Source: Escherichia coli
Lineage (GTDB): Bacteria > Pseudomonadota > Gammaproteobacteria > Enterobacterales > Enterobacteriaceae
Assembly: GCF_003334255.1 (NCBI RefSeq)
Contig: NZ_QOWU01000001.1
Length of the DNA: 64,000 nt
Strand: one strand, 5' to 3'
Shown here one piece after another: positions 34,250 to 39,752 of the stretch (positions are counted from its first letter, which is position 1; the number at the start of each line of letters is the position of its first letter). The notes below the pieces were generated by a model that saw nothing but the letters and a program-made list of their open reading frames with translations, had not been told where the DNA came from and did no database searches. The position numbers and the translations under genes were made by a program.

Positions 34250-36913
34250 TTACGCCAGACGCGGGTTAACTTTATCTGCATCGATGTTGAATTTGGCGAT
34301 TGCGTCAGCAACCACTTTCTTATCGATTTCGCCACGTTTAGCCAGTTCGCCCAGCGCCGCAACCACGACATAAGAAGCATCAACTTCGAAGTGGTGACGC
34401 AGGTTCTCACGGCTGTCGGAACGACCGAAGCCATCAGTACCCAGTACGCGGTAGTCGTCAGCCGGTACGTAAGTACGGACCTGCTCAGCGAACAGTTTCA
34501 TATAGTCGGTAGATGCCACTGCCGGAGCGTCGTTCATCACCTGAGCGATATACGGAACGCGCGGAGTTTCCAGCGGGTGCAGCATGTTCCAGCGTTCACA
34601 ATCCTGACCATCACGCGCCAGCTCGGTGAAGGAGGTCACGCTATAAACGTCAGAACCTACGCCGTAATCTTTCGCCAGGATCTCAGCTGCTTCACGGACG
34701 TGACGCAGGATAGAACCGGAGCCGAGCAGCTGAACTTTACCTTTGCTACCTTCAATAGTTTCGAGTTTGTAGATACCTTTACGGATACCTTCCTCAGCAC
34801 CTTCCGGCATTGCCGGCATGTGGTAGTTTTCGTTCAGCGTAGTGATGTAGTAGTAAACGTTCTCTTGTTTTTCACCGTACATACGCTCCAGACCGTCATG
34901 CATGATGACAGCAACTTCGTAAGCGTAAGCCGGGTCGTAAGAGATACAGTTCGGGATAGTCAGCGACTGAATGTGGCTGTGACCATCTTCGTGCTGCAGA
35001 CCTTCGCCGTTCAGGGTGGTACGACCGGAAGTACCGCCGATCAGGAAGCCACGCGCTTGCTGGTCGCCAGCCGCCCAGCACAGATCGCCAATACGCTGGA
35101 AGCCGAACATCGAGTAATAGATGTAGAACGGGATCATCGGCAGATTGTTGGTGCTGTAAGAGGTCGCCGCTGCCAGCCAGGAACAACCTGCGCCCAGCTC
35201 GTTGATCCCTTCCTGCAGAATCTGACCTTTCTCGTCTTCTTTATAGTAAGCAACCTGCTCGCGGTCCTGCGGGGTGTACTGCTGACCGTTCGGGCTGTAA
35301 ATACCAATCTGACGGAACAGACCTTCCATACCGAAAGTACGCGCTTCGTCGGCGATGATCGGTACCAGACGATCTTTGATCGACTTGTTCTTCAGCATCA
35401 CGTTCAGAGCACGAACGAAAGCGATAGTGGTAGAGATCTCTTTGCTCTGCTCTTCCAACAGCGCGCCGAAGTCTTGCAGGCTCGGCAGCTCAAGCTTCTC
35501 GGTGAAGTTCGGCTGACGGCTTGGCAGATAACCGTGCAGTTTCTGACGCTGAGCGTGCAGATAGGTATGCTCTTCAGAACCTTCCGGGAAGGTGATGTAC
35601 GGCAGTTTTTCGATATCTGCATCAGACACCGGCACATTGAAACGGTCGCGGATATGACGCACACCGTCCATGTTCATTTTCTTAACCTGGTGCGCGATGT
35701 TTTTACCTTCAGCCGCGTCGCCCATGCCGTAACCTTTAATGGTATGAGCAAGGATTACTGTCGCTTTGCCTTTGGTTTCCTGCGCTTTCTTGAATGCAGC
35801 GTAGATTTTCTTCGGATCGTGACCACCACGGTTCAGTGCCCAGATCTGCTCGTCAGTCCAGTCTGCAACCAGTGCTGCGGTTTCAGGATATTTACCGAAG
35901 AAGTGTTCACGAACGTACGCACCATCTTTCGATTTGAAGGTCTGGTAGTCGCCGTCAACGGTTTCGTTCATCAGCTGGATCAGTTTACCGCTGGTATCCT
36001 TACGCAGCAGTTCATCCCAACGGCTACCCCACATCACTTTGATCACGTTCCAGCCAGCACCTTCGAAGATGCCTTCCAGTTCGTTGATGATCTTGCCGTT
36101 ACCGGTGACCGGGCCGTCAAGACGCTGCAGGTTACAGTTGATAACGAAGACCAGGTTATCCAGTTTTTCACGGGTAGCGATGGTGATCGCACCTTTGGAT
36201 TCCGGTTCGTCCATTTCACCGTCACCGAGGAACGCGTAAACGGTTTGTTTAGAGGTATCTTTCAGGCCACGGTGTTCCAGATATTTCAGGAATTTAGCCT
36301 GGTAAATAGCACCAATCGGACCCAGACCCATAGATACGGTCGGGAACTGCCAGAATTCCGGCATCAGTTTCGGGTGCGGATAGGAAGAGAGGCCATTGCC
36401 GTGAACTTCCTGACGGAAGTTATCCAGCTGCTCCTGAGTCAGACGACCTTCCAGGAAAGCACGAGCGTACACGCCCGGGGAGATGTGGCCCTGGAAGTAA
36501 ACCAGGTCGCCGCCATCCTGCTCGTTGCGTGCACGGAAGAAGTGGTTAAAGCACACATCATAAATGGTTGCGGAAGACTGGAAGGACGCCATATGGCCGC
36601 CCAGTTCGAGGTCTTTTTTCGACGCACGCAGCACCGTCATGATGGCGTTCCAGCGGATAGCTGAACGAATACGGCGTTCCAGTTCCAGATTACCCGGATA
36701 CTCCGGTTGTTCTTCAACGGGGATGGTGTTGATGTAGTTGCTGATACCTGTGCCTGCGGCTACGTTTACACCGCCTTTGCGGGCTTCAGCAAGCAGTTGG
36801 TCGATCAGATACTGAGCACGCTCAACACCTTCTTCACGGATGACCGATTCGATCGCCTGGAGCCAGTCGCGAGTTTCGATCGGATCCACGTCATTTGGGA
36901 AACGTTCTGACAT
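34250..36913 (-). CDS. aceE: pyruvate dehydrogenase E1 component
   Basis: 887 aa, [29 protein letters not shown]...; matches AceE. Confidence 0.95.
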
Positions 36914-37073
36914 GGGTTATTCCTTATCTATCTAATAACGTTGAGTTTTCTGGAACCTGTCCCATTGAACTCTCGCCGGAAAGCTCAATAAGACAGGTTC
37001 TACGTTTAGTTGCCGCGCTTTTATATGCGCTTGATTTACAACATCTTCTGGATAATTTTTACCAGAAAAATCA

Positions 37074-37838
37074 CTAATTCTTTCGTTGCTCCAGACGACG
37101 CAGAGAACGCTCACGGCGGCTCTCTTCACGACTTCTGTCGAGCAAAATTTCTTCGATAAAGGCCAGATGGCGATGCGATGCTTCGCGCGCTTCTTCCGGC
37201 TTACCGGCCATAATCGCTTCAAATATGCGGGTGCGGTGACTACTCACCAGCGGCAGCATCTCGCGACGCGAATAGAGCAATTCGAAGTTCTGGCGGACAT
37301 TCTGGGCCAACATCGGCTCCATACACCTTAGCAGATGAAGCAGAACCACATTGTGGGCCGCTTCGGTGACGGCAATCTGATACTGGAGTACGGCGTTTGA
37401 TTCCGCGTCCAGATCGCCAGACTGCTGCGCCAGCTCTATGGCGTGGTGGAGTTCACGGATGCGTTCCTTGTCTTCATCGGTACTACGCAGCGCGGCGTAA
37501 TAAGCGGCGATACCTTCCAGGGCGTGTCGTGTTTCGAGCAAGTCATACTGTGACTCAGGATGGTCGGAGAGCAGCTCCACCAGCGGATCGCTGAAGCTTT
37601 GCCATAGGCTGCTCTGGACAAAAGTGCCGCCACCCTGGCGACGAAGCAACAAGCCCTTCGCTTCGAGACGTTGAATCGCCTCACGCAAGGAGGGACGGGA
37701 GACGTCAAACTGTTTTGCCAGTTCGCGTTCCGGTGGGAGTTTTTCGCCCGGGCGGAGAGTGCCTTCGAGGATCAAAAACTCCAGTTGCTGCTCAATCACA
37801 TCGGAGAGTTTTGGTTGGCGGATTTTGCTGTAGGCCAT
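37074..37838 (-). CDS. pdhR: GntR-family transcriptional repressor of the pdhR-aceEF-lpd operon
   Basis: Trimmed to [54 protein letters not shown] (254 aa), ATG confirmed at 37836-37838; winged-HTH GntR N-terminus. Confidence 0.93.
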
Positions 37839-37869
37839 GAGTTCCTGTCTTAAGCCACTTGCCGAAGTC

Positions 37870-37886
37870 AATTGGTCTTACCAATT
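37870..37886. promoter_or_regulatory. PdhR operator (auto-regulatory site in the pdhR promoter)
   Basis: Perfect palindrome AATTGGTCTTACCAATT about 32 bp upstream of the pdhR start codon; matches the GntR-family/PdhR box as I recall it (ATTGGT...ACCAAT). Confidence 0.75.
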
Positions 37887-38290
37887 TCATGTCTGTGACG
37901 CTAAAGTAACAAAGTATTCACCTTATGTCCATACAGGTTTTGATTGAAATCATGAAACTGTGCACATTTTAACAACTTGACATATATAACGTTTCAAAGT
38001 TGTAACTATGCACAAATGTAGACTTTACGTAGGAAAGGAGTTTTTTAACGATTATTAAACTATAAAAATCCGAATTGAACCGATTCACTTACCAATTTTG
38101 TGATTTTTAATTCAATTAAAACGAATTTAAATTCATTCTACATATTGAGAGGGGTTGAGGCTGAGCTTTACAAACGGTTTCTTTTTAAGCAACTCATCTT
38201 CAACCATGCATAAAGCGGGTGCATTCGCTGCCGCATACCATTATTCTTGATCTGACGGAAGTCTTTTTGTAACAATTCAAACTTCTTTGA

Positions 38291-38308
38291 TGTAAACAAA
38301 TTAATACA
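38291..38308 (+). promoter_or_regulatory. TyrR box-like site upstream of aroP
   Basis: TGTAAAcaaattAATACA resembles the TyrR box consensus TGTAAA-N6-TTTACA; about 70 bp upstream of the aroP start. Confidence 0.5.
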
Positions 38309-38378
38309 ACAAACGGAATTGCAAACTTACACACGCATCACTGCGTAGATCAAAAAAACAACCACCGCACGAGGTTTC

Positions 38379-39752
38379 ATGATGGAAGGTCAACAGCACG
38401 GCGAGCAGCTAAAGCGCGGCCTTAAAAACCGCCATATTCAGCTTATCGCGCTGGGTGGCGCGATAGGGACCGGGTTATTCCTGGGTAGCGCCTCCGTAAT
38501 ACAGTCCGCAGGGCCAGGGATTATCCTGGGTTACGCCATTGCTGGTTTTATCGCCTTTCTGATCATGCGTCAGCTGGGTGAAATGGTGGTCGAAGAACCT
38601 GTCGCAGGCTCCTTTAGCCACTTTGCTTATAAATACTGGGGCAGTTTTGCCGGTTTCGCCTCTGGCTGGAACTACTGGGTACTGTACGTTTTAGTTGCCA
38701 TGGCTGAGCTGACTGCCGTGGGTAAATACATTCAGTTCTGGTATCCGGAAATCCCCACCTGGGTTTCTGCCGCCGTATTCTTTGTGGTGATTAACGCCAT
38801 CAACCTGACCAACGTTAAAGTGTTTGGCGAGATGGAGTTCTGGTTTGCCATTATCAAAGTTATCGCGGTGGTAGCGATGATCATCTTCGGCGGCTGGCTG
38901 CTATTCAGTGGCAACGGCGGCCCGCAGGCGACCGTTAGCAACCTGTGGGATCAGGGTGGTTTCCTGCCGCACGGCTTCACCGGGCTGGTGATGATGATGG
39001 CGATTATCATGTTCTCGTTCGGTGGTCTGGAACTGGTGGGGATCACCGCAGCAGAAGCTGATAACCCGGAGCAAAGTATACCGAAAGCAACTAACCAGGT
39101 TATCTACCGCATCCTGATTTTCTATATTGGTTCGTTAGCCGTTCTGCTCTCACTGATGCCGTGGACCCGCGTTACCGCCGATACCAGTCCGTTTGTGCTG
39201 ATCTTCCACGAGTTAGGCGATACCTTTGTGGCGAATGCGCTGAACATCGTGGTACTGACTGCGGCGCTCTCCGTGTACAACAGCTGCGTATATTGCAACA
39301 GCCGTATGCTGTTTGGTCTGGCACAACAGGGTAATGCGCCAAAAGCGCTGGCGTCTGTCGATAAACGTGGTGTACCAGTAAATACCATTCTGGTGTCTGC
39401 ACTGGTAACGGCGTTGTGCGTACTGATTAACTACCTTGCCCCAGAGTCCGCTTTCGGACTGTTAATGGCGCTGGTGGTATCTGCACTGGTAATCAACTGG
39501 GCGATGATTAGCCTGGCGCATATGAAATTCCGTCGCGCCAAGCAGGAACAAGGCGTGGTAACTCGCTTCCCTGCTCTGCTTTATCCGCTGGGTAACTGGA
39601 TCTGCCTGCTGTTTATGGCGGCGGTACTGGTGATTATGCTGATGACCCCAGGAATGGCGATTTCGGTATACCTGATCCCGGTATGGCTGATCGTGTTAGG
39701 TATCGGCTATCTGTTTAAAGAGAAAACCGCCAAAGCCGTAAAAGCGCATTAA
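38379..39752 (+). CDS. aroP: aromatic amino acid:H+ symporter (APC family)
   Basis: 457 aa, 12 predicted hydrophobic helices, MMEGQQHGEQLKRGLKNRHIQLIALGGAIGTGLFLG.... Confidence 0.93.
   Translation: MMEGQQHGEQLKRGLKNRHIQLIALGGAIGTGLFLGSASVIQSAGPGIILGYAIAGFIAFLIMRQLGEMVVEEPVAGSFSHFAYKYWGSFAGFASGWNYWVLYVLVAMAELTAVGKYIQFWYPEIPTWVSAAVFFVVINAINLTNVKVFGEMEFWFAIIKVIAVVAMIIFGGWLLFSGNGGPQATVSNLWDQGGFLPHGFTGLVMMMAIIMFSFGGLELVGITAAEADNPEQSIPKATNQVIYRILIFYIGSLAVLLSLMPWTRVTADTSPFVLIFHELGDTFVANALNIVVLTAALSVYNSCVYCNSRMLFGLAQQGNAPKALASVDKRGVPVNTILVSALVTALCVLINYLAPESAFGLLMALVVSALVINWAMISLAHMKFRRAKQEQGVVTRFPALLYPLGNWICLLFMAAVLVIMLMTPGMAISVYLIPVWLIVLGIGYLFKEKTAKAVKAH

Follow-up and report, generated by a model that had tools for sequence, protein, structure and literature searches.

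The inverted repeat that separates pdhR from aceE in Escherichia coli very probably encodes a cis-acting RNase III hairpin within the pdhR–aceEF–lpd transcript. That this hairpin is an RNase III site separating the pdhR and aceEF–lpd messages is already known from published work; the present analysis adds comparative evidence, an argument on the strand under selection, the fit of independent 3'-end data sets (122940/1 and 122968) to the second cut, and a description of ERIC-like inserts at the same place elsewhere.

The pdhR–aceE spacer contains a 22-bp hairpin

The window analysed here is a 64,000-nt stretch of E. coli DNA, in which pdhR and aceE lie on the minus strand. The 801-nt region around the hairpin is 100% identical to many E. 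coli strains and complete genomes, where it is annotated as pdhR and aceE, and it occurs as a single copy per genome. Coordinates of the reference strain were converted as follows: window position = 37073 - (MG1655 position - 122857). Since the aceE ATG starts at 36913 and the pdhR stop codon occupies 37074–37076, the spacer extends from 36914 to 37073. The ORF list also contains two mechanically called frames that run across it (36895–37077, plus strand, and 36932–37222, minus strand). The features of the locus are:

34250–36913, minus strand: aceE, with its ATG at 36913–36911 (ORF list and translation)
37074–37076, minus strand: pdhR stop codon (ORF list and translation)
36914–37073, minus strand: pdhR–aceE intercistronic spacer, 160 nt (ORF list, translation and MG1655 annotation)
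37003–37018, minus strand: conserved block GCGCGGCAACUAAACG, just 5' of the hairpin, which contains C-99 (window 37012)
36953–37000, minus strand (the mRNA strand): 48-nt hairpin, MG1655 122930–122977
37000–36979, 36978–36975 and 36974–36953, minus strand: 5' arm, loop and 3' arm of the hairpin
36992–37000, minus strand: GAACCUGUC, 5' half of the basal 9-bp duplex, invariant in 40/40 distinct orthologues
36953–36961, minus strand: GACAGGUUC, 3' half of the basal duplex, whose G at 36961 is position -48 from the aceE ATG
36990–36991, minus strand: two U that form tandem U·G wobbles with G 36962–36963, between both cuts
36920–36925, minus strand: aceE Shine–Dalgarno sequence AAGGAA (from the sequence; invariant in the alignment)

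A sequence-only reading of this DNA had drawn attention to a 9-bp inverted repeat in a 160-bp spacer, and both the length of the spacer and the positions of the two 9-mers agree with the sequence and the ORF coordinates (GAACCTGTC at 36953–36961 and GACAGGTTC at 36992–37000, plus strand). Taken alone the 9-mers are only mildly unusual, because 3.6% of spacers simulated with a first-order Markov model contain a perfect inverted repeat of at least 9 bp whose halves are no more than 60 nt apart. They are, however, just the base of two 22-nt arms (36953–36974 and 36979–37000) with 4 nt between them: the repeat is real, but describing it as 9 bp long understates a helix of 22 bp. In the mRNA strand, all 22 positions of the stem are paired and contiguous (18 Watson–Crick pairs and four G·U pairs), which is within the length range of RNase III double-cleavage substrates (about 20–22 bp or more). 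The hairpin has a folding energy of -33.7 kcal/mol as against -12.0 ± 2.7 kcal/mol for shuffled sequences (z = -8.0), none of 200 shuffles being as stable, and the helix is the dominant element in the fold of the whole spacer (z = -5.9). The long stem-loop that had been postulated in the polycistronic mRNA, with RNA folding as a check, is therefore borne out, and it is the published RNase III hairpin.

A profile over 45 spacers indicates that the first 44 nt or so after the pdhR stop codon vary between species or are missing, and that the last 115 nt or so are highly conserved; the conserved part comprises the block with the GlnZ site, the hairpin, and the leader through the Shine–Dalgarno sequence. 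The latter is the target of laboratory-evolution mutations that tune aceE (PMC8489512). We considered the hairpin as a target of the aceE 5' UTR mutations obtained in a pdhR deletion strain and rejected it, the mutations being located in the Shine–Dalgarno sequence instead (PMC8489512). Two side observations concern the flanking genes. Firstly, the aceE start codon of E. coli is predicted to lie inside an 8-bp stem with a 14-nt loop (36886–36915, minus strand; CCAUGUCA / UGACGUGG), and an equivalent stem is predicted in 7/7 other species folded; its conservation is confounded by that of the protein, because the partner arm is coding sequence. Secondly, the Term-seq supplement (PMC7815308) places 3' ends within pdhR at MG1655 122287 and 122093 (about 37643 and 37837, minus strand), the former matching a terminator-like hairpin that our scan called at window 37642–37626.

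Comparative evidence for selection on the mRNA strand

Searching one genome per GTDB species for PdhR provided 80 loci, from Enterobacteriaceae and two Serratia. Both arms of the hairpin were found in every one of these species-representative loci that extended far enough, and 44 sequences (40 of them distinct) with 48-nt hairpins could be aligned without gaps. Among the 40 distinct sequences, 98.5% of the sense-strand cells form standard pairs, and changes on both sides occur in 7 of the 22 pairs (56 cells). Covariation scores 0.210, compared with 0.117 ± 0.008 for shuffled alignments, none of the 500 shuffles reaching so high a value. Sliding the partner by 1–3 columns lowers pairing to 34–49%, and the RNAalifold consensus consists of the identical 22 pairs. 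Variation is confined to the apical eight pairs, which covary: the basal 15 pairs or so are invariant in sequence in the 40 distinct Enterobacteriaceae sequences save for two single-sequence changes. In Serratia, basal pairs do change, and they change compensatorily (A-U to G-C at pair 3 and U·G to U-A, giving GAGCC.../...GGCUC).

The two strands of the hairpin are not equivalent. The tandem U·G wobbles are present on the sense strand in 40/40 and 39/40 distinct sequences. When the reverse-complement alignment is examined, 86.3% of the cells pair, and the wobble positions appear as C·A mismatches that are unpaired in 40/40 and 39/40 sequences. Furthermore, folding favours the sense hairpin over its antisense counterpart in 35 of 39 distinct orthologues, by a mean margin of 7 kcal/mol. 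Because the U·G pairs are kept on the sense strand and correspond to C·A mismatches on the other, the alignments indicate that it is the mRNA strand, and not the strand modelled by Rfam (see below), whose structure is under selection.

Published RNA ends fit a staggered RNase III cut

The site 'Intergenic (pdhR-aceE), 122961' is the top novel RNase III site of Gordon et al. 2017 (mBio; PMC5371410), and this coordinate corresponds to window 36969, inside the hairpin. Cleavage was verified in vitro with purified RNase III and the product, mapped by 5' RACE, was reported to be identical to the mapped aceE start (PMC5371410). Four independent ends published from other data sets, and the cuts that they delineate, are:

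36961 (MG1655 122969), minus strand: 5' end at a G, 48 nt before the ATG; 5' RACE (PMC2759082)
36962 (MG1655 122968), minus strand: 3' end; Term-seq (PMC7815308 supplement)
36989 (MG1655 122941), minus strand: 3' end, ratio 0.72, flag 'No'; Term-seq (PMC7815308 supplement)
36990 (MG1655 122940), minus strand: 3' end labelled 'novelTTS'; SMRT-Cappable-seq (PMC6131387 Supplementary Data 1)
36961–36962 (MG1655 122968/122969), minus strand: scissile bond of the 3' arm, where the Term-seq 3' end abuts the 5' RACE end
36989–36990, minus strand: cut site of the 5' arm, from the 3' ends at 122940 (SMRT-Cappable-seq) and 122941 (Term-seq)

The RACE end is within 1 nt of the start of Spencer and Guest 1985, as that work is cited in PMC2759082. 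We take the 8 nt between the coordinate of Gordon et al. and the RACE position to reflect the resolution of an RNA-seq coverage call.

As the partner of 122969 is C122938, an arm that ends at 122940 extends 2 nt beyond the duplex as a 3' overhang, the hallmark of RNase III. The Term-seq end at 122941 gives a 3-nt overhang instead; a terminal A at this position could be hidden by the poly(A) tailing of the SMRT protocol. Placed on the helix, the published ends thus correspond to cuts in both arms with 3' overhangs of about 2 nt, and the duplex left at the base after both cuts, GAACCUGUC paired with GACAGGUUC, is precisely the 9-bp repeat that had been singled out from the sequence. Note that the pairs between the cuts are U·G and U·G, whereas at RNase III sites in vivo one or both of these pairs are usually G-C (PMC6212723), a preference rather than a strict rule; the main text of that in vivo map mentions neither aceE nor pdhR.

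The coincidence of coordinates, together with the published cleavage in vitro, leads us to infer that RNase III generates the in vivo ends, and that data labelled as a 'promoter', a 'novel TTS' and 'orphan 3' ends' describe one and the same RNase III double cut. A processing site was among the three options offered by the sequence-only reading, and it is the one that published data uphold: RNase III cleaves there in vitro, the 5' and 3' ends are staggered in both arms, and the end mapping that had been suggested as a check is already available, with minus-strand ends at 122969, 122968, 122941 and 122940, all inside the interval.

The physiological effect is modest. The half-life of aceEF changes about 1.7-fold, from about 3 min in the wild type to about 5 min in an rnc deletion strain, and pyruvate dehydrogenase activity, which is higher in the rnc mutant, is altered only in early stationary phase (PMC5371410).

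The -48 end and the internal promoter aceEp

We consider it improbable that the palindrome overlaps a weak sigma-70/sigma-38 promoter, aceEp, from which aceEF–lpd would be transcribed from G-48 independently of PdhR. Such a promoter would account for the end at -48 ± 1 observed by 5' RACE and, as cited in PMC2759082, by S1 mapping (Spencer and Guest 1985); a minor promoter is retained in databases and in later work (PMC8811725), and its reality was kept open by Gordon et al. themselves (PMC5371410). However, that very end is the one generated by RNase III in vitro (PMC5371410), and Olvera et al. did not confirm aceEP1-P2 by a second method, the sigma-70 score being only 1.90 (PMC2759082). Our scan of 36500–38400 called no sigma-70-like site. 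The sole hexamer rightly placed for a start at -48, GAGAGT, is part of the apical stem, whose changes between species maintain pairing and not the hexamer, while TTCAAT ends 3 nt before the -48 end, which is too close. More generally, no -35/-10 combination with 16–18-nt spacing is both suitably placed and conserved, the candidate -10 columns varying with their pairing partners. At the transcript level, the operons defined by SMRT-Cappable-seq start at pdhR (122024 and 122033) and at lpd, none at aceE (PMC6131387), and a cassette put in place of the spacer lowers aceEF expression as a polar insertion would (PMC9426594).

The 'promoter start' at -48 is therefore most likely a processed end and the long-listed aceEp probably a processing artefact, which makes an internal promoter the weakest of the three options of the sequence-only reading.

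Tp2 as an antisense small RNA

The candidate sRNA tp2 reportedly stems from Rivas et al. 2001, and the sequence-only reading mentioned it as a candidate reported around the 3' end of pdhR. In substance this was right, as shown by the following match:

36916–37029, plus strand (antisense to pdhR and aceE): Rfam RF02030 tp2, full length, 103.4 bits (gathering score 50)

In two respects the picture is different: the match falls in the spacer instead of around the end of pdhR, and the Rfam model is that of an RNA antisense to the operon. The mRNA strand gives a partial match to the palindromic core only (29.5 bits), and in 12/12 related loci the match is likewise antisense to the operon (72–114 bits). 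The number b4414, which we take to be the b-number of tp2, returned only unrelated matches in a full-text literature search.

In the present case, RF02030 shares the locus and the hairpin core, with a score well above the gathering score, but it describes an antisense sRNA gene, whereas the wobble pairs and the published ends indicate a cis-acting element of the mRNA strand. It is accordingly very unlikely, to our mind, that Tp2 is an independent antisense sRNA transcribed from the plus strand across the aceE Shine–Dalgarno sequence and the hairpin and acting on aceE or other targets. The Rfam family is typed 'Gene; sRNA' and its matches in related genera are on the equivalent strand, and Tp2 is present in E. 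coli sRNA lists; yet the conserved pairs, including the two invariant wobbles, are consistent only on the mRNA strand, and the scan of 36500–38400 called no promoter-like site on the plus strand. The annotated Tp2 has a low TPM and shows no regulation, and the current RefSeq records of MG1655, W3110 and DH10B hold no tp2 gene. In the delta-tp2 strain the whole spacer is replaced, with a polar effect on aceEF and no complementation in trans (PMC9426594); the supplement of that paper has no entry for tp2. Finally, northern blots with aceE 5'-UTR probes revealed short 5'-UTR transcripts (Walling et al. 2022, bioRxiv 10.1101/2022.04.01.486790), which, coming from such probes, we take to be sense-strand RNAs. 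These observations point to Tp2 being an mRNA element, the RNase III hairpin itself, with no separate gene; the database entry would then represent the strand whose structure is not selected.

Termination at the end of pdhR

Could some polymerases stop at the end of pdhR, the hairpin being part of a terminator or attenuator that lowers aceEF relative to pdhR? Among the 108 5'-triphosphate reads that start at 122033, the pdhR start, 27 end at 122940, the 'novelTTS' of SMRT-Cappable-seq, and 37 read through (PMC6131387); in addition, Olvera et al. raise the possibility of a terminator downstream of pdhR (PMC2759082). However, this 3' end lies within the 5' arm, i.e. before the hairpin could be transcribed and folded, so that it cannot result from hairpin-dependent termination. 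The stem is followed by CAGAAAACUC and not by a U-tract, and the scan called no terminator-like site in the spacer; an intrinsic terminator was therefore rejected. As for Rho, we read the flag 'No' of the Term-seq end at 122941 (ratio 0.72; PMC7815308 supplement) as meaning not Rho-dependent. Lastly, the second 3' end abuts a 5' end at a single bond, which is the signature of an endonuclease. Termination is thus a most implausible source of these ends, and RNase III cleavage of both arms is the reading that we retain.

ERIC-like inserts in the loop and DNA-level readings

A palindromic repeat of about 120 nt occupies the apical loop of the pdhR–aceE hairpin in some 15 species (Klebsiella, Raoultella, Phytobacter, Pseudescherichia and others). 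These loci keep the conserved stem, and the whole forms a hairpin of about 170 nt with a folding energy of -74 to -94 kcal/mol. The inserts are found at the following loci:

Inserts of full size: L015, L031, L032, L045, L046, L051, L052 (L052:2341-2510), L057, L068, L069, L071-L073 and L078
Shorter forms: L067, L064, L040, L041, L043, L048, L049 and L075; also listed, L019:2595-2825

The versions of 60–70 nt look like decayed remnants. The inserted core matches a dispersed intergenic repeat of E. coli (16,231 places, with a median of four per genome), which we take, from its consensus, to be ERIC/IRU. In the 170-nt version from Phytobacter, only positions 30–144 match the dispersed repeat and the flanking stem has no match; the E. 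coli hairpin itself shows no homology to this multi-copy repeat of about 115–127 bp. We also observed a copy of the ERIC-like core in the aceF–lpd spacer of the window (32079–32142, minus strand; 78% identity over 64 nt to the Phytobacter insert, E = 7e-10), inside which lies a Term-seq 3' end (MG1655 127845, about window 32085; PMC7815308 supplement).

A perfect PdhR box, ATTGGTCTTACCAAT, is located at the pdhR promoter (37871–37885, plus-strand coordinates); as it is the sole exact match in the 64-kb window, with none in the pdhR–aceE spacer, a PdhR operator in the spacer was rejected. A repeated element was rejected too, the arm being confined within the 64-kb window to the hairpin (one exact copy, plus the partner arm at two mismatches).

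An element acting at the level of DNA, either an operator for a dimeric protein with GAACCTGTC and GACAGGTTC as half-sites or the remnant of a palindromic mobile repeat, would suit the outer 15 bp of both arms, which are invariant beyond what pairing alone needs, and the palindromic ERIC-like repeats in the loop of other genera, but is scarcely credible: the half-sites are anywhere from 30 to over 200 bp apart, depending on the species, with the RNA stem kept, the asymmetry between G·U and A·C has no meaning in double-stranded DNA, the only PdhR box and the copies of the arm are where stated above, and the dispersed repeat matches the inserted core alone, not the stem.

Proposed processing pathway and relation to GlnZ

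With the hairpin taken as an RNase III substrate, the following sequence of events may be proposed. Transcripts initiated at the pdhR promoter would read through the spacer, and the 22-bp stem would form. RNase III would cut both arms, after the U/A at 36990/36989 and between G36962 and G36961, releasing three products: a pdhR mRNA whose 3' terminus lies in the 5' arm, so that it retains GAACCUGUC as well as the GlnZ pairing site in its 3' UTR, an apical hairpin of about 27–28 nt, and an aceEF–lpd mRNA that begins at G-48, presumably with a 5'-monophosphate. The processed aceEF–lpd mRNA decays faster, so that cleavage lowers pyruvate dehydrogenase relative to PdhR and uncouples the two halves of the operon. 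GlnZ, an sRNA of nitrogen limitation, pairs just upstream of the hairpin and promotes cleavage. Pairing of GlnZ at aceE C-99 was shown by compensatory mutation by Miyakoshi et al. 2022 (PMC9731577), who also report that AceE is increased in an rnc14 strain and that the RNase III site is downstream of the GlnZ site. A primer-extension stop that depends on both GlnZ and RNase III was described by Walling et al. 2022 (bioRxiv 10.1101/2022.04.01.486790).

The site studied by Gordon et al. 2017 (PMC5371410) is the identical object, the same intergenic region and hairpin, with a product that starts at the mapped aceE 'TSS'. Comparable systems differ in instructive respects. The rpsO–pnp and rnc leader hairpins, which are classic autoregulatory RNase III sites, are likewise long, 5'-proximal and cut on both arms, the downstream message decaying faster (PMC5371410); unlike them, the pdhR–aceE hairpin stands between two cistrons, where it parts a regulator from enzyme genes, and has an sRNA site upstream. 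The sdhB–sucA leader (Cunningham and Guest 1998, as cited in PMC9731577) is also that of a 2-oxoacid dehydrogenase E1 gene with a long stem-loop cut by RNase III, and it shares GlnZ targeting with the aceE leader (PMC9731577). The effects of rnc14 are nevertheless opposite, SucA being decreased and AceE increased, and the RNase III cuts are upstream of the GlnZ site in sucA and downstream of it in aceE (PMC9731577), so that processed aceE mRNA loses the GlnZ site. In metY–nusA–infB and pflB–pflA, which are different operons, the processed 5' end coincides, as here, with a 'promoter' start mapped earlier (PMC5371410); the comparative data available for aceE argue more strongly against a conserved promoter.

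A possible translational switch

Beyond triggering decay, the RNase III cut may act as a switch that turns an open, sRNA-sensitive aceE leader into a damped, sRNA-insensitive one; we put this forward as a speculative and rather unlikely extension, suggested by folding predictions. The 5'-terminal GACAGGUUCC freed by cleavage, which is invariant, contains GGUUCC and is predicted to pair with the GGAA of the Shine–Dalgarno sequence in the processed leader. The predicted pairing probability is about 0.68 in E. coli and 0.56–1.0 across the four bases in seven other species, with a still lower value for Serratia at the last of them; before processing, the corresponding bases are only 0.06–0.54 paired. 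The predicted helix is weak, and since both partners are invariant it offers no covariation test. In the same model, the pdhR 3' fragment could serve as a decoy for GlnZ. If the switch exists, the anti-Shine–Dalgarno role would account for a basal stem kept invariant in sequence, beyond mere pairing, and a corollary would be that the catalogued 'Tp2 sRNA' is no antisense gene.

Significance

The assignment of the hairpin bears on the annotation of the locus, in RegulonDB/EcoCyc as in Rfam, and on the engineering of aceE expression through the spacer. According to published work, the hairpin sits at the pyruvate node of central metabolism: it determines the yield of pyruvate dehydrogenase per transcript of the enzyme's own repressor, and ties the ratio of pyruvate dehydrogenase to PdhR to the activity of RNase III and, via GlnZ, to the nitrogen status of the cell.
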